A stretch of 36,779 bases of DNA, taken from the UHGV virus genome UHGV-0182470; one strand, 5' to 3'. Of this stretch, positions 13,762-36,779 are shown in pieces. The first letter of the stretch is position 1; each line of letters begins with the position of its first letter. Under the pieces are notes generated by a model. It was given only the letters and a program-made list of their open reading frames with translations, searched no databases and was not told where the DNA came from. Origin of the DNA: a virus. The translations under genes and the position numbers were made by a program.

Positions 13762-13793
13762 TTGACACAAAAGATGTTTATTGACAATATATA
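13762..13793 (+). promoter_or_regulatory. Putative sigma70 promoter of the DUF262 cargo gene
   Basis: TTGACA at 13762-13767 followed ~17-18 bp later by AT-rich -10-like hexamer (CAATAT/AATATA); ATG at 13820 with AAGGAG RBS. Confidence 0.35.
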
Positions 13794-13819
13794 AATTCAA
13801 TCTAACAAGGAGAAAAATT

Positions 13820-15595
13820 ATGCCAAATGAAAATCTTGATATTGACTCAAGGACTACCGAGCAATTATACGAATGGTATTTGCAAGGAAATTTGATAGTC
13901 AATAGACGTTATCAAAGGAAACTTGTATGGTCTCTAGAAGAAAAGACTTCTTTAATATCTTCTATGCTGCAACAATATCCTATTCCGTTATTATTATTTG
14001 TTACCATCAATGAACAAAGAGAAATATTGGATGGAATGCAAAGATTAGAAGCAATTATGAGCTTCATCGAACAGAGATTTTCATTAGATGGACAATATTT
14101 TGATTTGGACTCTATAGCTTTAACAAAACAACTTAAAGATAATGGAACTTTAATTCAGAAAGAACCAATCCTTTCCCGTGATTCTTCAGCAATTATTGCA
14201 CGTTATCGATTTGCAATATCAGAATATAGCTCCACAAATGAAAATATTGACGAAGTATTCAGACGAATAAACTCAAACGGGAAGATTTTATCCAAACAAG
14301 AATTACGTAGTGCAGGAACAGTTAGTAACTTCTCTGAACTGGTCAGATCGATATCAACATCGATCAGAGGTGATACTAGCCATTCTGACATTATGAATCT
14401 CCAGCAAATGCACAAAATTTCAATCAGTAACGATAGATTGGAGTACGGGGTAAATATCGATAACCACTTTTATATAAAACATCATATTTTAACAAGACGA
14501 AGTATTCGTGATTCTGATGACGAGGAATTGATAGCCAATATCCTTGCATATATCAGTCTAGAAGAAAAACCCACATCTGGGTCAACTTCTCTCGACACAT
14601 TCTATGGTCAAGGAAACTCCTCTCATGCTCATGGTGTCAGACAGCAATTAGAGTCTTTCATTCAAACCAATAACGCTGCCACTATTAAGCAGAATTTCAT
14701 AGCTGTATATGAATTAATTACAAGCCTATATGACGGAAAAAATGATACTTTTAGAAGCCATATTTTAGGGGAGGATAATTCATCTCAAGAATGCCCTCGT
14801 TATTATCAAGCTGTGTTTTTGTCTATTTATGAACTTCTTTTCAACCAAAATATGCAATTAATTGATAAAGAAGGTTTATTCTCGCAATTAAAAAACACTG
14901 GCAATACCATAATTATGGTTACCGATGGTGGCCGCTGGGCTGCAAGCACTCGTGAAAAAAGTGTTAATGATCTTGTTGCATTAATAAGTCGCTACTTCCA
15001 ACCTGCTCCTCAAAAGTATGTGAATCATGCTTGGGTAACTGAAATTCGCAATCTATTAACAAATTCTAGAACTGAACAACCAAGTTATGATTTCAAACAG
15101 GGGTTCTTTAATTTATCAGGTAAAAATGAATTTGATGATGAATGTTTAAAAGGAATATTACAAACTTGCGTAGCAATAAATAATATTGGAAAAAGCGCAA
15201 AAGGCTATATTTTAGTTGGTATTGCCGAAAATAAATTAACCGCAGATAGAATTCAACATTTATATGGAGTAAATTCAATTGAGTTCAATGGGTTCTATAT
15301 AAACGGAATTGATCATGAAGCAATGTTAGTCTCTGGTAGCATTGATGGTTACTTTATGTTAATAAAACAAAAAATACAAGGATACAATTTCACTGAAACT
15401 CTAAAACAGCAGATACTTAAGAATATTGAGTTTTGCTCTTACAATGGCTTACACATACTCAAGATAACTATTCAGAGCACAGGTCAAATTTGCGACTTTG
15501 AGAATATGTTTTATATCAGACAAGGCTCATCGACTGATCCAGTTACGGATACACAAAAAATCTCAGCCCTATTTAACTCTTACATGAACAGCTAA
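13820..15595 (+). CDS. DUF262 (ParB/GmrS-like N-terminal domain) protein, candidate defence cargo gene
   Basis: 591 aa from ATG 13820 (AAGGAG RBS; ORF track start 13781 is upstream in frame); N-terminal region ...RRYQRKLVWS...ILDGMQRLEAI matches the DGQQR signature region of DUF262; visibly AT-rich relative to flanking phage genes; opposite strand to S and V. Confidence 0.7.
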   Translation: MPNENLDIDSRTTEQLYEWYLQGNLIVNRRYQRKLVWSLEEKTSLISSMLQQYPIPLLLFVTINEQREILDGMQRLEAIMSFIEQRFSLDGQYFDLDSIALTKQLKDNGTLIQKEPILSRDSSAIIARYRFAISEYSSTNENIDEVFRRINSNGKILSKQELRSAGTVSNFSELVRSISTSIRGDTSHSDIMNLQQMHKISISNDRLEYGVNIDNHFYIKHHILTRRSIRDSDDEELIANILAYISLEEKPTSGSTSLDTFYGQGNSSHAHGVRQQLESFIQTNNAATIKQNFIAVYELITSLYDGKNDTFRSHILGEDNSSQECPRYYQAVFLSIYELLFNQNMQLIDKEGLFSQLKNTGNTIIMVTDGGRWAASTREKSVNDLVALISRYFQPAPQKYVNHAWVTEIRNLLTNSRTEQPSYDFKQGFFNLSGKNEFDDECLKGILQTCVAINNIGKSAKGYILVGIAENKLTADRIQHLYGVNSIEFNGFYINGIDHEAMLVSGSIDGYFMLIKQKIQGYNFTETLKQQILKNIEFCSYNGLHILKITIQSTGQICDFENMFYIRQGSSTDPVTDTQKISALFNSYMNS

Positions 15596-23011: not shown

Positions 23012-24039
23012 TGGGAAAGAGTAAGAAAAACCGCGCTGCGGCGACGAAACAGCTCCAGCTTAAAAACCAGACTACAGCCGAAGCATTCAGCTTCGGCGAT
23101 CCCGTTCCTGTTCTGGACCGCCGAGAACTGCTGGACTATGTGGAATGCGTACAGATGGACCGTTGGTATGAGCCGCCCGTCAGCTTTGACGGACTGGCGC
23201 GCACCTTCCGCGCTGCCGTGCATCACAGTTCCCCGATTGCAGTAAAGTGCAACATTCTGACCAGTACCTATATCCCTCATCCGCTGCTCAGCCAGCAGGC
23301 TTTTTCGCGTTTTGTGCAGGACTATCTGGTATTTGGTAACGCCTACCTGGAGAAACGCACGAACCGATTCGGTGAAGTTATCGCTCTTGAGCCTGCGCTG
23401 GCAAAATACACCCGACGCGGATTAGACCTGGATACCTACTGGTTTGTGCAATACGGTATGACAACCCAGCCGTATCAGTTCACGAAAGGCAGCATTTTTC
23501 ATCTGATGGAACCGGATATTAATCAGGAGATCTACGGCCTGCCCGGTTATCTTTCTGCCATTCCGTCAGCCCTGCTCAACGAGTCCGCCACGCTGTTCCG
23601 CCGGAAGTATTACATTAACGGTAGTCATGCAGGCTTCATCATGTACATGACCGATGCCGCGCAGAACCAGGAGGATGTGAACAACCTCCGCAACGCGATG
23701 AAAAGTGCCAAAGGTCCGGGTAACTTCCGCAACCTGTTTATGTACTCGCCTAACGGCAAAAAAGACGGGCTTCAGATTATCCCGCTATCAGAAGTCGCAG
23801 CGAAGGATGAATTTCTTAACATCAAGAACGTGAGTCGGGATGACATGATGGCAGCGCATCGTGTGCCACCACAAATGATGGGGATAATGCCTAGCAATGT
23901 TGGGGGGTTTGGGGATGTGGAGAAGGCGGCAAATGTGTTTGTGCGAAATGAATTATTACCGTTGCAAAAAAGGATGCGTGAAGTAAATGACTGGTTAGAA
24001 CAAAAAATTTTGCGATTTGAGCCATATTCTTTGGGATGA
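23008..24039 (+). CDS. Q: Portal protein Q
   Basis: 343-aa ORF coupled to P (ATGA overlap). Confidence 0.9.
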   Translation: MMGKSKKNRAAATKQLQLKNQTTAEAFSFGDPVPVLDRRELLDYVECVQMDRWYEPPVSFDGLARTFRAAVHHSSPIAVKCNILTSTYIPHPLLSQQAFSRFVQDYLVFGNAYLEKRTNRFGEVIALEPALAKYTRRGLDLDTYWFVQYGMTTQPYQFTKGSIFHLMEPDINQEIYGLPGYLSAIPSALLNESATLFRRKYYINGSHAGFIMYMTDAAQNQEDVNNLRNAMKSAKGPGNFRNLFMYSPNGKKDGLQIIPLSEVAAKDEFLNIKNVSRDDMMAAHRVPPQMMGIMPSNVGGFGDVEKAANVFVRNELLPLQKRMREVNDWLEQKILRFEPYSLG

Positions 24040-24096
24040 TTTCTCTTGTAAATCAACATGCTTTGCTGTTCGATAGAACAAACCAAAATTTGATTA

Positions 24097-24557
24097 GTGG
24101 GAAAAGTTCATGGTACAGCAAGTATGGTTTTTTTTAAGGCAATTGAGAAAGACGATCTTAGATACTGGGGAAATGATAGTTATCCCGATGACTCATCAGT
24201 TTTCTATCGCTATGACAGTTTTGTAGCGAATCACAAAAATGTAAAAGACGGTGATATTATTATTATTACCAACAGAGAAAATATTTTAGGTATATCTGTT
24301 ATTGAAAAATTAGAAACACAGAGCATTAATAAGAAGCGTAACAAATGTATTAACCTAGACTGCAAAGCAAAAAAATTCTTCAAAGGAAAACTATAAAATC
24401 AGAGTGGCGTTGTGATAATGGCCATGAATTTGATGAACCCAGAGTGGTTTTTGAGCCAGCTAAAGAATTTATAGCATACTGCGGCAACCAGTACCGTAAA
24501 TTATCCAATATTACAATGTCACAACTTATAGATGAAACTCCACGCTACAATGGGTAA
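24097..24557 (+). pseudogene. Zinc-ribbon-containing ORF split by a frameshift in an A7 tract (24097-24396 in frame 0, continuing to 24557 in frame +2)
   Basis: Frame-0 ORF ends ...KCINLDCKAKKFFKGKL; the same region in frame +2 reads ...KKILQRKTIKSEWRCDNGHEFDEP...YCGNQY... One extra A in the A7 run at ~24370-24376 would join them into one ~153-aa protein with a Cys/His zinc-ribbon-like pattern. Confidence 0.45.
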
Positions 24558-25070
24558 ATGTCCATCCAAGAAGTTAACTATCAATGGGCTGTTGCTTTGC
24601 TTACCGCCCAACATACTATTATTCTGGAGCTCAACGCCAGCGAAGCTGATAAAGACACCCCCACTTTAATGGGTGAAGATCAACGGCAAATTGTAGAACG
24701 GCAAATAAAACAACGAAGTGGGCAAAAAACATTTCGCGACCAGCTATTAAAATCAAATCCTACTTGTGCGGTTACGGGCTGTAAGCTTGTTGATATTCTT
24801 GATGCTGCTCACATTAATGTATATCGAAACGATAGTCACAATCATATTAGCAATGGATTATTGCTCAGAAGTGACATTCATACTTTATATGACCTAAATC
24901 TTTGTGCTATAAACCCGATAACAAAAACCATTCATTTTTCAGTGGAAGCCTTGGAAAATGGATATTCGAAATTCGAAGGTTTAAAAATAAATACCCAACA
25001 CAACATAGCAATAAAACCACTATTAACAAGATGGCAGTTATTAAAATCTCAAAACTCTATTGATATATAA
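24558..25070 (+). CDS. HNH endonuclease-domain protein
   Basis: 170 aa; motifs RSGQKTFRDQLL...CAVTGC...LDAAHI...NGLLLRSDIHTLYD fit the HNH (restriction-type) signature; ATG abuts the TAA of the upstream ORF (TAAATG); AT-rich. Confidence 0.7.
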   Translation: MSIQEVNYQWAVALLTAQHTIILELNASEADKDTPTLMGEDQRQIVERQIKQRSGQKTFRDQLLKSNPTCAVTGCKLVDILDAAHINVYRNDSHNHISNGLLLRSDIHTLYDLNLCAINPITKTIHFSVEALENGYSKFEGLKINTQHNIAIKPLLTRWQLLKSQNSIDI

Positions 25071-25085
25071 TAAATAGCGACAACC

Positions 25086-25117
25086 GAAGGGAGCGTTTAT
25101 AATTAAAAGCTCCCTTT
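25086..25117. terminator. Bidirectional hairpin terminator between convergent cargo genes
   Basis: GAAGGGAGC ... GCTCCCTTT stem flanked by A/T-rich sequence. Confidence 0.5.
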
Positions 25118-25126
25118 AGCAGGAAA

Positions 25127-26155
25127 TTAGAGCACTAGGGGATCAGTGACCCATGCTTTATTATGGTTTTCTCGATAACAATCATAAATTAATAAATCCG
25201 TTCTTGTATCCGGTGGAAGTTCAATTTCAGGAATGTAATAACTTGCTGGATTGCTATTATCTAATGAAATTGAAAAGTTTTGATTAACGATCGTTGATAG
25301 AGACGTATTGGCTTCCAATAAGCTAAACGGGCCATATTTTACACAGTACATTACAACACAAGCAGCAACTGCATCCATTACATTTTCTAAAGTGGAAAAG
25401 TGGAATGCTCCTGATCTATCATGTTTAGTTTTATTATATGCATTATACCATGACAAAGATGTTGTAGGGGTACTTGCATTCCACCCATCAAAAGGTTTGA
25501 AATGCCTTAATCCGTCATAATTCAAATATTGAATTTTATATTCAGACAAATAACACTTATCTAATAATTTCACATAATCATTTGTGGAGTATCGACCATT
25601 TGAACGAGATAAATTCGAATTACCAATGATTGACACCCATTGATTTTCAACCTCAGTACAAGCAAGAATTAATAGCTCTCTACATTTATGACTGTAAGAA
25701 ATCAAACCATGGGCACTTGGTTCTACATATAGAAAAATATCATCGAGTTTTTCTATCAAAACTCTTAGAGCTTGCTCTGTTGCTCTTTTTTCAAACTCAT
25801 CGATACCTAATGCTGTTTCTGTATCATTGACATAATATAAGGATGGCCGCCACACTCCCCTAGTTACATGTCCAATTTCATTATCTAAAGGAGATATGTT
25901 CTGAGCCCCAAATACTCTCCGAACCCAATCATTGAGAGTTCCACTTCGTTGCTCAATAACAGTTAACCCAACTGATATTACATTAAATCCCACGTCACGC
26001 CCATACAGATGCACAAAATGACTTGTTGTTTCATAAGCGTAACCGAATTTGTGCTTTTGATGTACTGTTGTTTCAAAATTAGGAATGCGTGTATGAGTGT
26101 TTTCGTACCAGATTCCGTTCATCATCACCTCTAATGAGAGTCGATTATATTTCAA
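25127..26155 (-). CDS. Hypothetical 342-aa AT-rich cargo protein
   Basis: Long uninterrupted ORF on the minus strand in an AT-rich island between Q and the putative cos site; no confident family assignment (contains an RSGAFH, i.e. R-x4-H, motif). Confidence 0.6.
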   Translation of the reverse strand: MKYNRLSLEVMMNGIWYENTHTRIPNFETTVHQKHKFGYAYETTSHFVHLYGRDVGFNVISVGLTVIEQRSGTLNDWVRRVFGAQNISPLDNEIGHVTRGVWRPSLYYVNDTETALGIDEFEKRATEQALRVLIEKLDDIFLYVEPSAHGLISYSHKCRELLILACTEVENQWVSIIGNSNLSRSNGRYSTNDYVKLLDKCYLSEYKIQYLNYDGLRHFKPFDGWNASTPTTSLSWYNAYNKTKHDRSGAFHFSTLENVMDAVAACVVMYCVKYGPFSLLEANTSLSTIVNQNFSISLDNSNPASYYIPEIELPPDTRTDLLIYDCYRENHNKAWVTDPLVL

Positions 26156-26233
26156 TGGATTATATGGATGATACTACACTAAGTTGTACCTATGACAGAT
26201 ACTATTTTAGCCACTTCAGGCATACAGCGCGCG

Positions 26234-26252
26234 CTCGTATCCCCGCCACGCC
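26234..26252. other. Putative cos cohesive-end site (P2/186-like)
   Basis: Reverse complement reads GGCGTGGCGGGGATACGAG; first 13 nt match the 186 cos sequence GGCGTGGCGGGGA as I recall it; GC-rich island in AT-rich surroundings. Confidence 0.4.
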
Positions 26253-26583
26253 TGCTCGCTTTATGTAGTGGTTTTCATGCACCTGCATGACATGAGTAAA
26301 AGCCCGCCAGTTCTGGCAGGTGTCTGCAAAAACGATCCTCAATCGATCATGCGATTTCATGCAGCATAGTCATGCACTGCCAAGGGAAGCGTTAATCCGT
26401 ATCTGATAACCGCTTGAAAAACGAAACATACTGGTTTACAACAATAAAAATCCGCTGTGAGCGAAGAGCAGAAGTTACAGCATAAAAAGCAATATGGTTG
26501 TGTACCATAGAGCTAAACATTTAAACAAGTTATGTGCTGTATCGATATACTGTGACTCAATATCTAAAACATGGAGGGTGAAT

Positions 26584-27057
26584 ATGTCTTCTTCTACATC
26601 ACAACTACAGCATGTTACAACATCGACAACAGTAAACTCGTCAAGTTACTCCCCCGTCAAATTGCAAGATCATGAAGCAGCATCGAATTCTGGACCTGGT
26701 GGACATACAATTAGAAGACATGTTGGCAAGGATGCCAATTACCTGATAGATCGATTAGATCGATTTCCTAAACTCTGTGTAGCTTCAACATTTACAAACT
26801 TATCAGTAGCAGAACTATCAGCTACCGAGTGGTTCAATTCATTTCTTATGGAATTTACAGAGTGGTATAAAGATCCTAATCGCACAGAGGTTAGATTTTC
26901 AAAGGAATTAGACATTGAACAGGATGTAGGCACTTACGTTAAACGCGATAATCCAAACAATATATTGACTGCAAAAAGAATTAATTTAGTCATGAAAATT
27001 GAAAAGTTTAACGGAATGCCTCATTTCATCCTCACTGCATATCCTGTTAAGGGGTGA
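26584..27057 (+). CDS. Hypothetical protein, toxin-like (Ser/Thr-rich N-terminal linker + compact C-terminal domain)
   Basis: ATG 26584 with GGAGGG RBS (track ORF starts upstream at 26494); 158 aa; motif GGHTIRRHVGK; translationally coupled to the next gene. Confidence 0.6.
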   Translation: MSSSTSQLQHVTTSTTVNSSSYSPVKLQDHEAASNSGPGGHTIRRHVGKDANYLIDRLDRFPKLCVASTFTNLSVAELSATEWFNSFLMEFTEWYKDPNRTEVRFSKELDIEQDVGTYVKRDNPNNILTAKRINLVMKIEKFNGMPHFILTAYPVKG

Positions 27058-27061
27058 TAAT

Positions 27062-27721
27062 ATGTCAAAAGAATATACTAAACTAGATAATTTTATACGG
27101 TCCTACTTCAATCAAGATACCGTATGCGAACTTGAGTCAGATGATCTTGGAAAGATTATTGATTTATATCTTTCTGATGTTGGTCAGAATGGCGTAAAAG
27201 AACTTCTAATTGATATTTCAAAGTTTATTAATGATAATAAAAATCAAAGCCTTGATAAATATTTTGAGAATAAGTTCAGCTCTTATCTTGACATAACTCC
27301 AGTTGAAAAATTCATCTCACTCTTGAATTCAAAATATCTCGAAAAATATCCTGAGATAAAATCCACTGCCGTGAAACATTTTGTATTTTCTACTACACCA
27401 AAGAGAACACAGCATAAACCAAGAATAATTAAAAGATTTCCTTCAATGGTTCCAGCACTTAGTTTTGAGTTTTCATCAGAACGAATCGCTGATTCCAATG
27501 CTTTGTTTCGAGGAAAAGTTTTTAAGCGTAACAACATTAAGCGCGGAGCCAGAAAACCATATTATATACTGGTAAACATCAAACCAAAACAAGAGGCGGC
27601 TATAAAGGTTTCTTTATCTAAGAGTAAGAGTCGTCAACGTCTTTACGATTCACTTAAAAAATCCATTGAAGCTACAGATATTGTTTTGCAAAATAATAAA
27701 GTCGAAAAAATGAAATCATAA
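27062..27721 (+). CDS. Hypothetical protein, immunity/partner-like, basic C-terminus
   Basis: ATG 27062 with AAGGGG RBS, 4 nt after stop of upstream gene; 220 aa; Lys/Arg-rich C-terminal third. Confidence 0.6.
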   Translation: MSKEYTKLDNFIRSYFNQDTVCELESDDLGKIIDLYLSDVGQNGVKELLIDISKFINDNKNQSLDKYFENKFSSYLDITPVEKFISLLNSKYLEKYPEIKSTAVKHFVFSTTPKRTQHKPRIIKRFPSMVPALSFEFSSERIADSNALFRGKVFKRNNIKRGARKPYYILVNIKPKQEAAIKVSLSKSKSRQRLYDSLKKSIEATDIVLQNNKVEKMKS

Positions 27722-27730
27722 CGTGAAGAA

Positions 27731-27757
27731 AATAGCCACTCCTAGTGGCTATCTTTA
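27731..27757 (+). terminator. Rho-independent terminator after the two-gene module
   Basis: ATAGCCACT / AGTGGCTAT perfect 9-bp stem, 3-nt loop, followed by CTTTAATT. Confidence 0.6.
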
Positions 27758-27941
27758 ATTGTTATCCCAAAACCATCTCCTAGGGAGGTGGTGATTGATT
27801 TATAAGATAGTTAAAACCAAAAACATTTGACAGTAGTAAAGAGAAAGTTGCGTCCATCAGTTGAAGTCAAAGCATAAAGCGGACGATCACTTATCAAAAT
27901 GGCCGCCCACCTAACTCCTCGTTTCACTCGTGCTAAAACTA

Positions 27942-27971
27942 GCCCCCATCAGAATAAATCCTCCTGGGGGC
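27942..27971 (-). terminator. Rho-independent terminator after dinI-like gene
   Basis: GCCCCC...GGGGGC hairpin immediately downstream (minus strand) of the stop at 27980, followed by a U-rich tract on the minus strand. Confidence 0.5.
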
Positions 27972-27979
27972 AACGTTTC

Positions 27980-28210
27980 TTAATGCAGCCAGCTGTCGTC
28001 TTCCCACACCTTCTGCATAATTTTCATCACTTGTTTTCTTTCTTCGTCCAGTTGCAGTCCGGTCAGTTCCACACCGTTAGAGCTACCTTTGCGGATACGA
28101 ATTACCGTTTTGGGATACAGGGGGCGCAGATTGCGGTAAAGCTCGGATTCAAGGGCGTCCAGTGTAGACTGGCTAACCTTCTGCTCTTTATCGATCATTA
28201 TTTCAATGCG
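27980..28210 (-). CDS. dinI: DinI-family protein (ORF track extends to 28285; start at MRIEIMI)
   Basis: MRIEIMIDKEQKVSQSTLDALESELYRNLRPLYPKTVIRIRKGSSNGVELTG...KIMQKVWEDDSW aligns along its length with E. coli DinI as I recall it. Confidence 0.8.
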   Translation of the reverse strand, partial: RIEIMIDKEQKVSQSTLDALESELYRNLRPLYPKTVIRIRKGSSNGVELTGLQLDEERKQVMKIMQKVWEDDSWLH

Positions 28211-28223
28211 CATAAAAGTCACC

Positions 28224-28412
28224 TCAGCTGATGACATCCATTGAGCGGTTGTATTCGTGGGTTCTGATTTTTGCCATAAGTTCATCTGTCAGTTCAGAAA
28301 CCCACTGCAGGGCCAGCCCCTTCTCTTCATCACTACACTCACTAGCCGCTACAAGCTTAAGAAAAAAATCAATGCGCTGGAGCTTCAAAGACTCCAAAAA
28401 ATAGTCCTGCAT
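28224..28412 (-). CDS. Small acidic hypothetical protein, first gene of LexA-boxed operon (Tum-like antirepressor candidate)
   Basis: 62-aa ORF immediately downstream of a LexA box and upstream of the dinI-like gene; functional assignment is inference only. Confidence 0.4.
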   Translation of the reverse strand: MQDYFLESLKLQRIDFFLKLVAASECSDEEKGLALQWVSELTDELMAKIRTHEYNRSMDVIS

Positions 28413-28564: not shown

Positions 28565-30979
28565 TTAATACAGGTTTCGCCACTTATCATCTTCCTGCAA
28601 ACGCTGGTTCCGATAGAAGATACGCAGGCCTGCTCCTGATGGAATACTGCCGCCGCGAAGCAGTAAATCGACCTCTTTCTCGCTGCCATCAAATCCCCTG
28701 GACTTCAGTTCATACACGAGCTGCTGTCGCTGATGATCTGTAATTCGCTGTTTGTAGTCTTTACGCCGTTTCGGTTTCACAAGGCGTAACCTTGCTGCCA
28801 GTTCCCGGCGCTCTTTTTTGCTCATACTGTGCAGGTAATCGTGCAACTCCTTGTCATCCATGCGGGTGATATCCGTTCTGGTATCTCCATCAGCTGATTT
28901 GTCTTTCCCTTGTTGGTACAAATTTTCAGCAAGGGGACAGTTATTGCCACGAGTCCAAGGGGCGCAAGCGCCCTGGTCGGCTGCCGCCTCCTGAATGTCA
29001 ACGGCCTTACGAACCATTTTCCACTTCACGGCATGAGTGCAGATCTTGCCCTCTGCAATAGGTGACCAGATGCCATAAATACGAATGCCGTGATCGCCAT
29101 AGGCGGTCGGCTCTTCGTTGATTTCATAAGCAGTTCTGATGAGGTGATATTTGCGGGGAACCAGTACGCCGCCCTGCTTCATGATGTAGGTGGCAAAACA
29201 ACCAGCATCAGCAGCAGCCAGGATTGCATCAAGGCGCGGGTTATCCAGTACCGGCGCACCTGCTTTTTTGTCCCCCTGTTGCCTTGCCGCCTGACCAGCC
29301 AGCAATCGCAGTTCACGGTAAGCCTGACGCCCCGGAATGCCAAAGAAGCGGAATTGCTGAACACGATGCAGAGACGCCCAGGCATTAACGTATTCAGCAT
29401 TATCACGCAGGGATTTCCCCGTTTCCTTGCTGATCTCGCCAGCCAGACCACGCCCGTCAATGTTCTTACTGATGTATTTCGCGATGTAGCTTGTTGGCGT
29501 ACCTTTGCGCGGGTTAATCAACTCAGACTTAAAGCGCGGTCCAGTGTTATTGCCCAGCTCCTCGCGGTCTTCACGGATGGCAAACTTACGCAGTAATGCA
29601 GTGATGGCGCGGCGGTCTTTTTTGCGCATAAAACACAACAGGTGCCAGTGAACTGTACCGTCATGATGCGGCTCAGCCACCCGCACGCCATACCAGCGCA
29701 ATCCGGCTTTGTGCATCGCCTTACGAAATGCAGCAAACATGCCGACCAGATAATCACTACTTTGTCTTACCGTCGCATTTGTCCAGGTTGGGTTGGGCCT
29801 GCCGTTATTTAGCGTGGAATGGAAACGTGACGGACAGGTGATGGTGTAGAAAACGGCGCAGTCACCGCGCATTTCCGCGATAAGCTCCAGACCTTTAACA
29901 CAGGCCATCATCTCATTGCGGCGATGCGCAGGGTTGCTGCTGCTGGCGTTTACCACATCCTCCATGTCCAGCGTGTCGCCGTCTTCGTTCACCAGTTCAT
30001 GAGAACGGAAAAACTCCAGCGACTTACGGCGCTGCTCACGTTTATGCATCACGGCTTCATAGCTGACATAAGGAGATGCTTTTTTGCTAACCAGGCAGAC
30101 AGCGCGCAACTGCTCTTCCCGCCATTCGCAACGCATCTTCCATAATTTCCGATACCACCAGTCAGCGCACAACATACGCGCCAGCGAACCCGGAATGAGT
30201 TCATAGGGCACGGGTTTACGGCGGTTTCTTTTCCGGCGGAGTTGCTCAAACGCAGGCGGGATGACATCCAGACGCAGGGTTTCCGCTGCCACCTTTTCCC
30301 ATGTATTGCGGATTTCTTCTGGCTTAACGTCATCGGTGACATACAAATCGCCACAAGCTGCATCAAGGCACATGCTCATATGCGCAGCGACAAGGGTAGA
30401 CAAGCGTTTCACCTGATCCTGACTCATTTCAGGCAGGATCAGCAGGCCGTCCAGCCCTTCATGGCTTGCCATAAAGCGAAAAGAAGTGGATAGCTGACTG
30501 TCGCGTACATGCTCCAGTCGTTCCAGACATGGCTTAATCGTCTCACGCAAATAGCGGGAATAAGCCTTTGGCCTGCCCAGGCTGCTGAAGTATTCAATAC
30601 GTTGCATCAGCGGCTTGCTGATATGGGAAGGCTGGGCATTGACGTCCGCCAGAATGACCATGTCCGGGTTAAAACGCTGCTGCTCATGCGCCAGCTTTGC
30701 CCGACTAATGAGCTTATCCTGCTCCATTTCGCGCTGGACAGGATCACGGGATTCATTAAAGAAATAACGCTCCCAGACCTGATCACTCAGCGCCTCACGG
30801 CGCAGCTGTTCCTGCTCGTTATCGGCAGCGTACAGAGTGATCAGATTTGAAAGCGCAGAAACCGGCGCAACTTCCGCCGGGTCCAGATAAGGGTTAATGG
30901 CCTTTTTCGGGCTGTTCCATGAGAATGCTGCGGCGACCTCGTTAAAGCCGCTGCAGTTGTTCATATCAGCATGGCTCAT
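28565..30979 (-). CDS. A: Replication initiation endonuclease A (rolling-circle type)
   Basis: 804-aa ORF; size, position and sequence character match P2/186 gpA. Confidence 0.85.
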
Positions 30980-33662: not shown

Positions 33663-33905
33663 TTACTTACCAACAATGACGCGGAAGTTGGAATGACCGA
33701 GGGATTCACGGACCTGATCGGTTTTGTACATTAAATAACGCAGGCTTACGCGGCCTTTGTTTTTTTCCTTCTTGACCATGTATTTAGCAAGCTGACCATG
33801 GTGAATTTTTTGATACACAGAGCCGCGGGAGATACCTTCCCATTCAGCGAACTCAGCAGGCGTTGCCATCTCTTTTGGTACACGAATTGAAATATCAGTA
33901 CTCAT
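33663..33905 (-). CDS. apl: Apl/Cox-like excisionase and lytic-switch regulator
   Basis: 80-aa HTH-like protein, first gene of the lytic operon, divergent from cI. Confidence 0.65.
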   Translation of the reverse strand: MSTDISIRVPKEMATPAEFAEWEGISRGSVYQKIHHGQLAKYMVKKEKNKGRVSLRYLMYKTDQVRESLGHSNFRVIVGK

Positions 33906-34021
33906 AGTGCAGTATCTCTTAGTTTGGTTTCGTTTTATCTTGTTTTATGTGGTTTGGTTTTGCTTTTCAAACCATGAATGGATATTAAGATCACTTTTTA
34001 TATACGTCAAGAGGTTTGATT
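33906..34021. promoter_or_regulatory. Lysis/lysogeny switch region (divergent/face-to-face promoters and operators)
   Basis: 116-bp intergenic region between apl and cI with repeated GTTTGGTTT elements and an inverted GGTTTG...CAAACC pair. Confidence 0.5.
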
Positions 34022-34654
34022 ATGAGTTTAATCAAAGCGGGAAATGATAGTGGTGGGCGCGATGCAATTAACAGGCTTATTAAGGCTTACAACTTCAGCT
34101 CACGACAGCAGCTCTGCGAACATCTGGAAGTATCCAAAAGCACTATGGCTAACAGATACTTAAGGGATAGCTTTCCTGCCGAATGGGTAATTCAATGTGC
34201 CCTTGAAACAGGAGCTTCCCTTCTATGGCTGGCTACTGGTCAAGGAGATATGTATGCGTGTGAGAACGAAGAAACAAATCTCAAAAATGAACCTCCCGTC
34301 ACTGTAAGACCACTTTCTAAGATCGTTGCTCCTAGCATCAAACGTGTTGAACTGAAGAACGGCGAACTGCAGGCAAGTGATGAAATTCTTCTTGATAGCA
34401 GCCTGCTCGATGGTGACTCATCCAACGCTTTATTTGTTAAAACAGCTAATAATAGCTTTGTAGTGGATACGTCCGTTAAACAAGTCAGTAATGGCTTCTG
34501 GTTAGTCGATATGGACGGAGTTAAAAGCATCGTCAAAATTGCGCGCATACCCGGAAACAAAATAGTAGTTAGCCAAGATGACACTTCATTTGAATGTTCT
34601 GTAGATGATGTGGAAGTCGTAGGACGTGCAGTCAAAGTAATCAAGAACCTCTAA
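34022..34654 (+). CDS. cI: CI immunity repressor (186 type)
   Basis: ATG 34022 with AAGAGG RBS (track start 34016 is a TTG); N-terminal HTH region; immediately upstream of int. Confidence 0.8.
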   Translation: MSLIKAGNDSGGRDAINRLIKAYNFSSRQQLCEHLEVSKSTMANRYLRDSFPAEWVIQCALETGASLLWLATGQGDMYACENEETNLKNEPPVTVRPLSKIVAPSIKRVELKNGELQASDEILLDSSLLDGDSSNALFVKTANNSFVVDTSVKQVSNGFWLVDMDGVKSIVKIARIPGNKIVVSQDDTSFECSVDDVEVVGRAVKVIKNL

Positions 34655-34657
34655 CTT

Positions 34658-35674
34658 ATGACCATCAGAAAACAGCCGAACGGAAAATGGTTGTGTGAGT
34701 GCTATCCCAATGGACGCAATGGTAAGCGCGTGCGTAAGCAATTTGCTACCAAAGGCGAAGCCATTGCATTTGAAAGCTTCACAATGGAAGAAGTGAACAA
34801 AAAACCGTGGTTAGGAGAAAAGGATGATCGGCGACACCTATCAGAATTAATTGAGCTTTGGTATTCCCTGTATGGTCAGACACTCGCAGACCCCAAGCGC
34901 CTCATGGCGAAACTTAGAATTATCTGTAATGGTCTAGGCGACCCCATCGCCTCAGAACTGACAGCCGGTGACTTTACGAAATACCGCGAAGCACGGTTAA
35001 AAGGTGAAGTACGAAATGAAGATGGCACGTTTATGTCGCCCGTTAAGCCCCGCACGGTAAACCTTGAACAGCGCAATCTATCATCTGTTTTTGGTACGCT
35101 GAAAAAGCTGGGCCACTGGTCAGCCCCCAACCCGCTTGCTGGGCTGCCAACATTTAAAATTGCTGAGAGTGAATTGGCGTTCCTGACCCCGGAAGAAATT
35201 AAACGTCTGCTGGATGCCTGCGCCGATTCTCAAAGCTCCAGCCTGCTTTTGATTGCAAAAATATGCCTGGCCACCGGCGCACGCTGGAGCGAAGCCGAAA
35301 ACCTGCAGAGTCATCAGGTATCAAAATACCGTATCACTTATACCAAGACCAAAGGCAAGAAAAACCGAACTGTGCCTATTTCTAAGGATTTATATGAAGA
35401 ACTGCCTAAGAATAGGGGGAAGTTATTCACCCCATGCAGAAAAGCCTTTGAGCGTGCAGTAAAGCGGGCTGGTATCGATCTGCCAGAGGGTCAATGTACT
35501 CACGTTCTGCGTCATACATTCGCTAGCCATTTTATGATGAATGGTGGAAACATATTGGTTTTGCGGGATATCCTAGGACATTCAGATATAAAAATGACCA
35601 TGGTCTATGCACACTTCGCCCCAGACCATTTAGAAGATGCCGTAACTAAAAATCCTTTATTTAATTTGAGGTAA
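34658..35674 (+). CDS. int: Tyrosine integrase
   Basis: 338 aa; C-terminal catalytic region HVLRHTFASHFMMNGG...LGHSDIKMTMVYAH with R..H..R..Y signature. Confidence 0.9.
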   Translation: MTIRKQPNGKWLCECYPNGRNGKRVRKQFATKGEAIAFESFTMEEVNKKPWLGEKDDRRHLSELIELWYSLYGQTLADPKRLMAKLRIICNGLGDPIASELTAGDFTKYREARLKGEVRNEDGTFMSPVKPRTVNLEQRNLSSVFGTLKKLGHWSAPNPLAGLPTFKIAESELAFLTPEEIKRLLDACADSQSSSLLLIAKICLATGARWSEAENLQSHQVSKYRITYTKTKGKKNRTVPISKDLYEELPKNRGKLFTPCRKAFERAVKRAGIDLPEGQCTHVLRHTFASHFMMNGGNILVLRDILGHSDIKMTMVYAHFAPDHLEDAVTKNPLFNLR

Positions 35675-35684
35675 GTAGTAATTT

Positions 35685-36353
35685 ATGAATAGCGAACTAG
35701 AGTTACTTATAAAAATATTATTCCCTTCCCTATCTGCCATTATATCCTTATTAGGGCTTAAAACAGGGTGGACTTATAAAAAAGATAAACTATTCACATC
35801 ACGTAAAAACATTAGCGAATTTTCATATCAGATGTATAAAAGCAGTGAAGATCCGACCTTCAAAAAACTGGCGGAAGATTACGGCATTGCTGCATTAACC
35901 AAAGATAACACATTGACAAAAAAACAAAGACTAATATTACTCAACACAACAAACCCCGTTAGCGATATAGATAATTATTCCAAATGTCAAAGTCTAATTT
36001 CCATTACCACCCATAAAGAAATATTCGCATGGAATAAAAAAAGATATAAATACAGCATATATAGAAAATTAATAAAAATCATAACAACTCTAATTTACTT
36101 CATGAGCAGTCTCATCGTAGCACTTCCTTTCAGTTATTCTGTTGTAGTAAGTGCTAAGATGATGGAGAAGATAAACCATCTAACTACTTGGCAATACTTT
36201 GGTTTAAGCAGCTATTTTGTGGTATCGGGAGTAGCAATATGCTTTATCTGCCTAGATAAGCTCTCCAAGATTAAGATCGCCGAGAGATTAATCGTTTCGA
36301 ATAGGCGTTTAGGCGACAAATGCAGTGGCGGCACTTTGGCGGCAGAAAGTTAA
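35685..36353 (+). CDS. AT-rich cargo membrane protein (two predicted TM helices)
   Basis: 222-aa ORF between int and attR; hydrophobic segments IKIITTLIYFMSSLIVALPF and YFGLSSYFVVSGVAICFICL. Confidence 0.6.
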   Translation: MNSELELLIKILFPSLSAIISLLGLKTGWTYKKDKLFTSRKNISEFSYQMYKSSEDPTFKKLAEDYGIAALTKDNTLTKKQRLILLNTTNPVSDIDNYSKCQSLISITTHKEIFAWNKKRYKYSIYRKLIKIITTLIYFMSSLIVALPFSYSVVVSAKMMEKINHLTTWQYFGLSSYFVVSGVAICFICLDKLSKIKIAERLIVSNRRLGDKCSGGTLAAES

Positions 36354-36438
36354 AAACCCATAAAACGGACAGACACCGCATAAATCTAACCAACTGAAAA
36401 TCAAAGCAAATCATTGTTTTTACAGACATTGAAATGCT

Positions 36439-36484
36439 ATGTAGGAATTTCGGACGCGGGTTCAACTCCCGCCAGCTCCACCAA
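36439..36484. repeat. attR core: 46-bp direct repeat (displaced ssrA 3' end copy)
   Basis: Identical to 35-80; preceded by non-ssrA sequence, so this is the partial duplicate. Confidence 0.85.
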
Positions 36485-36611
36485 TCATGATTGGACGGTA
36501 TAAGGACAACACCAATAAAAACAGGAAGTTAGCAGTCTCAGCAGGACACCGACCAGACGGTGAAGAGACATAAAAGGATACGCAAAGGAGCCGCGGCTCC
36601 TGGTGACATGA

Positions 36612-36635
36612 AAGCCCACAGATGTGGGCTTTTTC
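36612..36635. terminator. Rho-independent terminator in host flank
   Basis: AGCCCACA GAT TGTGGGCT hairpin followed by TTTTT. Confidence 0.6.
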
Positions 36636-36643
36636 GTTGATGG

Positions 36644-36779
36644 TCAGAACGACCAGTTCACACCAGCTACCCCGTTCCACGGGGATTCCACACCGGCACC
36701 ATGGCTATACCCCACCCCAAGATGCCCGCTTAACGTACTGCTGAATGAGGCTTTAATACCTGCCTGGTATATTCCACGT
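36644..36779 (-). CDS. Host gene 3' end, beta-barrel outer-membrane-protein-like C-terminus (partial)
   Basis: Minus-strand frame open to the window edge, ending ...GVGYSHGAGVESPWNGVAGVNWSF-stop; aromatic-X-Phe terminus typical of beta-barrel proteins. Confidence 0.4.
   Translation of the reverse strand, partial: RGIYQAGIKASFSSTLSGHLGVGYSHGAGVESPWNGVAGVNWSF

Follow-up and report, generated by a model that had tools for sequence, protein, structure and literature searches.

Defence hotspots have been described for P2 and P4 (Rousset et al. 2022; PMC9122126), and the interval from the integrase gene to the attachment site (int-att) is a minor defence hotspot of P2 prophages that accounts for 3% of P2 systems, with only recognised systems counted (PMC13586616, NAR 2026). 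That prophage cargo beside int can be defensive is already established. SieA of P22 is an inner-membrane protein of 162-164 aa with three transmembrane (TM) segments that is alone sufficient to block DNA injection (PMC10883804), and GapS1 is a validated single-protein anti-phage defence (10.1101/2023.03.28.534373). We analysed a window of 36,779 nucleotides (the whole stretch of DNA under study), in which a 222-aa open reading frame (ORF) lies between int and the att core of a Fels-2/186-like prophage, and compared it with these systems.

Like the P2 int-att hotspot, the locus is the same slot, variable and with known defence genes, whereas its cargo falls outside the recognised defence families and PMC13586616 does not include this protein. 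With SieA the ORF product shares a small size (222 versus 162-164 aa), a single-protein format, three predicted TM segments, a predicted inner-membrane location and probable expression from a prophage, yet the two have no detectable sequence similarity, differ in genomic position and phage type, and are set apart by a predicted cytoplasmic domain of ~100 aa that is too big for SieA to hold. GapS1 sits in the identical slot in three related prophages, there also as a single gene starting at the int stop, but at about 500 aa it is a soluble protein of the PD-(D/E)xK type and not a 222-aa membrane protein. Resemblances to the membrane effectors of abortive infection (RexB and the TM proteins of CBASS, Thoeris and retrons) and to SNIPE (PMC13190303) lie in membrane anchoring, a functional part predicted to be cytoplasmic, carriage on mobile elements and proximity to defence genes; unlike those effectors and the SNIPE nuclease, the ORF product has no partner gene, no enzymatic signature and no Pfam or PADLOC match. 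The gene belongs by position to a known hotspot class and by protein family, judged from sequence, to nothing described. Shown here are the base-precise insertion point, from the int stop to the arm repeat, and the single-gene, promoterless format.

The ssrA prophage and its cargo gene

Evaluating the ends of the window, we found an identical 46-bp core at 35-80 and 36439-36484 (ATGTAGGAATTTCGGACGCGGGTTCAACTCCCGCCAGCTCCACCAA) that matches the tmRNA/ssrA 3' end and so identifies a complete prophage in ssrA, a whole Fels-2/186-like element of ~36.4 kb lying within the window. The first-pass annotation had placed its cargo interval against attR with an end at 36438, and both the label and the coordinate are exact, the att core starting at 36439. 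The features of the prophage ends and of the cargo region are:

35-80, + strand: attL core, the ssrA 3' end and left copy of the 46-bp direct repeat
88-115, + strand: strong terminator-like hairpin with a 12-bp stem and a T run behind it, immediately past the attL core
33663-33905, - strand: Cox/Apl-like excisionase gene
34016-34654, + strand: 186-type CI repressor gene (Pfam Phage_CI_repr and Phage_CI_C)
34658-35674, + strand: tyrosine integrase gene of Fels-2/186 type (Pfam Int_N and Phage_integrase)
35675-36325, + strand: inserted AT-rich cargo cassette of 651 bp with a single gene, from comparison with empty and other-cargo relatives
35685-36353, + strand: cargo ORF, 222 aa, ATG start, between int and the att core
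36326-36345, + strand: direct repeat, GGCGGCA twice with 11-bp spacing, presumed Int arm-type site pair
36326-36438, + strand: attP P-arm, conserved in SEN8, RE2010, SopEPhi, Cartapus and Klebsiella phages
36439-36484, + strand: attR core, a displaced ssrA 3'-end fragment

The apl-cI-int segment shows 88% nucleotide identity to Fels-2 and 95.5% to a Klebsiella prophage record, and the CI repressor gene is presumed to be the first gene of the lysogenic operon. The hairpin at 88-115 appears to be a phage-supplied replacement terminator for ssrA; in the circular phage it would sit just downstream of int-ORF-attP, after the att core.

A 222-aa AT-rich ORF between int and the att core, as the first-pass annotation had described it, is present at 35685-36353, starting 10 bp past the int stop and ending 85 bp before the att core, with a GC content of 34.5% (GC3 35.9%), lower than the 46.5% of int and the 49.5% of the whole window. 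PGAP/RefSeq annotates the identical ORF as a hypothetical protein (WP_001083625.1), and a literature search found no paper on WP_001083625. Annotation that goes no further than 'hypothetical protein' would suit a chance or decaying, functionless ORF, a reading to which we give next to no credence and which the conservation data exclude. The probability of 222 stop-free codons at the ORF's composition is ~4e-8 (the other five frames hold 9-25 stops), dN/dS is 0.07 (P0008 versus P0012, the sole pair with unsaturated synonymous sites) and the architecture is kept in 76 clusters at 50% identity; the cargo ORF is therefore a real gene and not a chance reading frame. Saturation at synonymous sites makes dN/dS uncomputable for most homologue pairs; in all pairs pN lies far below pS. 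A lack of homologues had been named at the outset as a sign against the gene; homologues exist, and they are under purifying selection.

Several other segments of the window carry accessory genes. Inside the tail-gene region, a 33% GC island holds a 604-aa ORF (13781-15595, + strand) with GmrSD_N and Schlafen AlbA_2 domains and a resemblance to PADLOC NsnA and PD-T4-2_A, which is probably a second defence cargo in a known tail-gene hotspot. Adjoining the replication gene at 28565-30979, an AT-rich island (24000-28300, 32-43% GC) includes an HNH_2 protein (24558-25070), an unassigned 342-aa protein (25127-26155, - strand) and, overlapping each other, a CdiA-CT RNase A-like ORF (26494-27057) and a CdiI_2-like ORF (26999-27721), which form a putative toxin/immunity-like pair inside a prophage hotspot. 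Just inside attL, DNA of 44% GC carries ORFs at 203-685 (160 aa, with a weak PADLOC PDC-S48 match) and 724-1155 (143 aa), separated by a terminator-like hairpin at 687-704; the ORFs in 203-1155 may be cargo on the other attP arm. The DNA past attR (36485-36779) is another island and not core chromosome: in strain VCSW8 (L001 5045-8880) a frameshifted AIDA-repeat autotransporter and a recombinase fragment follow attR, and in other strains (L005-L008) a P4-like integrase followed by AIPR or NACHT genes. These further islands indicate that mobile elements are stacked in tandem at ssrA.

A variable slot between integrase and attP arm

Comparison with relatives defined the borders of the insert. 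In the empty slots of Xenorhabdus (L019) and Plesiomonas (L022) the motif TGGCGGCAnnTTGGCGrCA stands 0-5 bp past the int stop, and in occupied relatives, with ORFs of 343, 424 and 518 aa, cargo begins where the empty-slot arm repeat sits. The part of the core that was searched for lies 130-136 bp past the int stop in empty slots, at 134-136 bp in Xenorhabdus and Plesiomonas, and 1149-1679 bp past it in occupied ones, and in the window the core marker is at 784 bp. BLAST similarity to SEN8, RE2010, SopEPhi, Cartapus and Klebsiella phages begins exactly at 36326, where the motif starts (its GGCGGCA copies are at 36327 and 36338), and this, with the position of the motif in empty slots, gives an insert of 35675-36325. 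The arm repeat differs in relatives L024-L027, which have an integrase about 70% identical, and a repeat that changes with the integrase would fit Int arm-type sites.

The conserved attP arm supplies the final nine codons of the ORF (GGTLAAES plus stop), a 28-bp overlap (36326-36353) by which the reading frame runs into the presumed Int arm-binding sites. Since the 207-209-aa homologues stop earlier, free of the arm-repeat overlap, and the C-terminal tail has pLDDT <50, this tail is probably a by-product of the junction. The same overlap, together with the probable coupling to cI-int transcription, would be expected of a helper in the phage's own cycle, acting in lysis timing, integration/excision or prophage maintenance (addiction). 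We consider such a role very improbable, because the gene is absent from most close relatives, including the functional phages Fels-2 and SEN8, homologues also occur outside prophages, and the shorter homologues lack the overlap. SEN8 has essentially no insert in the slot, and in the Fels-2 record the similarity that runs through int breaks off some 170 bp short of the end, which would leave no room there for a cargo gene.

Surveying the slot at 80 P2-family integrase loci, one per species, we found an AT-rich ORF of 159-595 aa at about 20, starting -29 to +18 bp from the int stop, and nothing in the slot at the remainder. Eight of the 20 slot ORFs have Pfam matches, all of them defence-type: CAP12/Pycsar TIR, AAA_21 with OLD TOPRIM, KAP NTPase (twice), HNH, RiboL-PSP HEPN, FRG and a pPIWI-associated nuclease. 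The three slot GapS1 genes, in E. coli ETEC1702, Klebsiella sp. WOUb02 and Klebsiella phage ST437-OXA245phi4.1, score 393-429 bits against an NCBIfam curated cut-off of 320. Most slot occupants in relatives are uncharacterised genes. A 401-aa protein is found in the same slot of RE2010 (L002 3589-4794), Cartapus (L004 4090-5295) and LF82 (L104 3527-4732); the Cartapus record labels it 'putative RES protein, NAD+ binding domain', searches of Pfam, PADLOC and NCBIfam gave no match, and it is another candidate defence gene.

Among complete E. coli genomes, 222 carry an integrase at least 80% identical to that of the window, and in all five other E. coli relatives sampled the slot is occupied, each time by a different single gene. 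The cargo ORF is present in 29 of 5426 complete E. coli genomes and an integrase at least 95% identical is likewise present in 29, so that cargo and int allele seem to travel together and not to be freely shuffled. The cargo position proposed by the first-pass annotation is accordingly a true variable site, which relatives have either empty or filled with different AT-rich single genes, and its suggestion to look for different cargo in the slot of related prophages was borne out by the five genes in five E. coli and by the 80-locus survey. The ORF has the location, the varying content and the recognised defence genes in relatives that define the P2-family int-att hotspot, and since the slot in relatives contains known anti-phage genes, the cargo is most likely a phage-exclusion or defence gene. 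Guilt by location in the int-att slot is weak evidence.

Family, architecture and predicted topology

An identical protein is encoded on 740 contigs, and the 90% cluster to which it belongs has 183 members, drawn from E. coli and Salmonella. When 1.84 billion cluster representatives were searched with a profile, 76 relatives scored E<=0.001, and 39 of these reached E<=1e-10; the 76 are representatives at 50% identity, spread across Proteobacteria (one from Burkholderia ubonensis), mostly 200-230 aa long and alignable end to end, and the same length and architecture persist in homologues down to about 20% identity. Profile searches of a 5.8-billion-protein set added few distant named relatives among the matches listed, and all members of the 90% cluster and the homologues are named 'hypothetical'. 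Because tblastn gave no match among the 50,697 phage records of INPHARED, a full-length match to phrog_21256 (E = 6.6e-155) presumably reflects a family member taken from a prophage, and prophages and chromosomes are the only known sources of the gene. By this alignment phrog_21256 is the same protein family as the cargo ORF product. It is annotated as function unknown, as are all of the only three families that a PHROGs scan returned at E<=1, and as the sole match it agrees with the earlier statement that the protein has no similarity to phage core genes.

Searches of Pfam, NCBIfam and PADLOC gave no significant match. At E<=1, Pfam offered only a sub-threshold Man-6-P_recep match, the 33 diverse homologues examined have no Pfam family in common, and the best PADLOC-DB v2 (2023) scores, E = 0.007 for Cas2_II and 0.012 for 1TM-TIR, are both insignificant. 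No sequence relative was found in the PDB, where the profile matched only designed helical proteins at E>=0.011, and a model of the central domain only (pLDDT 54.6) was too poor for a fold search; no relative of known fold was detected. Pfam-A includes models for the Imm, SieB, RexB and GtrA families, and none of T4 Imm, SieB, RexB or GtrA was matched. Across these comparisons the protein resembled neither SieA, Imm, SieB or RexB nor any PADLOC family in sequence or fold.

Where two hydrophobic helices had been noted at first, we found three segments (aa 5-25, 129-155 and 171-191), and the TM topology prediction that had been suggested as a check gave three helices in an N-out/C-in orientation:

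35697-35759, + strand: hydrophobic helix 1, aa 5-25, N-terminus predicted periplasmic
35763-36065, + strand: K/R-rich soluble domain, aa 27-127, predicted cytoplasmic, conserved
36069-36149, + strand: hydrophobic helix 2, aa 129-155
36195-36257, + strand: hydrophobic helix 3, aa 171-191, followed by a conserved amphipathic helix predicted to be cytoplasmic

In the AF2 model (mean pLDDT 72.6), aa 2-26, 124-149 and 168-205 form long helices, and a small domain made up of a beta-hairpin and four short helices lies between the first two. The pattern of K/R residues is constant in 33 diverse homologues with identities to the window protein as low as 17%: essentially none before helix 1, 3-8 in each flank of the central domain, 0-2 in the loop between helices 2 and 3, and a positively charged tail after helix 3. 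By the positive-inside rule this conserved pattern indicates an N-out/C-in protein with its ~100-aa central domain in the cytoplasm, and the product is therefore predicted to be an inner-membrane protein with three TM helices, exposing to the periplasm only ~4 N-terminal residues and a loop of ~15 residues. The central domain is the most conserved region (2.11 bits/column versus 1.3-1.9 elsewhere), and the near-invariant residues of the protein (A69, A70, L77, R82, L85, W116, Y138, P148 and A199) are mostly structural. No catalytic signature or conserved catalytic motif was seen across the family, and the central domain is apparently non-enzymatic. A PD-(D/E)xK-like reading of 'NPVSDIDNYSKC' was dropped, as its acidic residues are unconserved in distant members.

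Homologues in E. coli, Siccibacter colletis and Cronobacter turicensis (46-67% identity) occupy the same int-att slot of Fels-2/186-like prophages, 9-14 bp past the integrase gene, and homologues both in the slot and outside it are lone genes. Defence genes adjoin the homologue in four of five contexts outside the slot: ThsB_TIR with a caspase-like protease; a C5-methylase with DUF2357/PDDEXK_7 and Vsr; Abi_C; and AIPR in a decayed P2 remnant.

A homologue in Klebsiella quasipneumoniae (L009 6001-6624; 50% identical, 45% GC) is a lone gene flanked by LysR regulators and aromatic-catabolism genes, in a neighbourhood free of phage genes, and its cluster is found on at least 1000 contigs. This context fits with none of the explanations tried, and a lone copy among metabolic genes indicates that the family is not tied to phages or defence islands.

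Topology and neighbourhood together bear on the main rival to the function proposed below, namely that the protein is an abortive-infection membrane effector with its own cytoplasmic sensor, in which the cytoplasmic domain would sense a phage product and the helix 2-3 hairpin, perhaps oligomerised, would depolarise or permeabilise the inner membrane so that the infected cell is killed or arrested. A conserved part predicted to be cytoplasmic and flanked by membrane helices would suit such an effector, as would distant relatives adjoining Abi_C, AIPR and TIR genes, and TM proteins in known defence systems are generally taken as suicide effectors (PMC9122126). We nevertheless judge this unlikely: there is no partner gene for sensing or signal generation, the neighbours being int and att; a constitutive pore-former made from the repressor operon would need tight self-inhibition; and no residue pattern or fold links the protein to a known effector.

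The K. quasipneumoniae copy, widespread and set among metabolic genes, is what would be expected if the gene served a lysogenic conversion unrelated to phages, altering envelope physiology, stress tolerance or host interaction. The int-att neighbourhood of other temperate phages also holds non-defence conversion genes, such as gtrABC and oac next to int-att in P22 and Shigella phages. Against this stand the absence of a GtrA, acyltransferase or other Pfam match, the defence type of every recognisable slot occupant in relatives, and the defence genes beside the homologue in the four contexts just listed, and we regard such a conversion role as distinctly unlikely.

Expression, proposed function and meaning

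A simple consensus scan found no promoter-like or terminator-like site on the + strand from 33757 to the window end. The first-pass annotation had spoken of a moron, and what stands of that label is the composition, which differs from that of the phage genes; in the strict sense it does not apply, the gene having no promoter and terminator of its own (a 10-bp gap follows int, and none is found in 35675-36438). The cargo gene instead looks like an extension of the cI-int operon, with a Shine-Dalgarno-like GAGG 13 nt from the ATG, a poor spacing. In phage 186 the lysogenic promoter pL also transcribes int. This promoter faces pR between apl and cI (PMC7498355). As there is no room for a promoter after int, the gene is most likely transcribed by read-through from cI-int and would thus be expressed in the lysogen.

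From these data we infer cI-int co-transcription, a membrane topology and an anti-phage function, which can be put together as follows. In the simplest reading a single cI-int-ORF transcript would be made in the lysogen, and its last product would insert in the inner membrane by three TM helices, N-out/C-in, with a domain of ~100 aa on the cytoplasmic side, between helix 1 and the hairpin of helices 2 and 3. This single protein, acting alone, would protect the lysogen from other phages at the inner membrane, and it would do so by interfering with entry of the genome or the earliest steps that follow, in the way P22 SieA does, which we favour over cell suicide. The choice of the entry stage follows from the presumably constitutive expression from the repressor operon, the missing partner gene, the apparently non-enzymatic domain and the SieA-like format. 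A lysogen-expressed, single-protein, inner-membrane anti-phage function is our leading reading, held tentatively. The predicted cytoplasmic location of the conserved part speaks against a block of entry and would fit a sensor or effector no less well.

It is also possible, if somewhat doubtful, that this ORF is the first, experimentally tractable example of a hitherto undescribed family of single-protein factors acting against phages or in exclusion, which on that reading would take in ~76 clusters at 50% identity from Enterobacteriaceae to Burkholderia. Such proteins, with three TM helices and a cytoplasmic domain for which no fold relatives were detected, would act in a way that present defence catalogues do not cover, for example through recognition of an injection or early protein of a phage on the inner side of the membrane.

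Should the protein have no anti-phage activity, the gene would be an ordinary accessory gene. If it is anti-phage, it would represent a compact one-gene membrane defence family that the libraries searched do not recognise, and the int-att slot of Fels-2/186-like prophages would be worth mining. The three GapS1 occupants of this slot suggest that its unannotated single-gene occupants deserve testing, and the cassette format, running from the int stop to the first arm repeat with no promoter, provides a simple harvesting rule for thousands of prophages.
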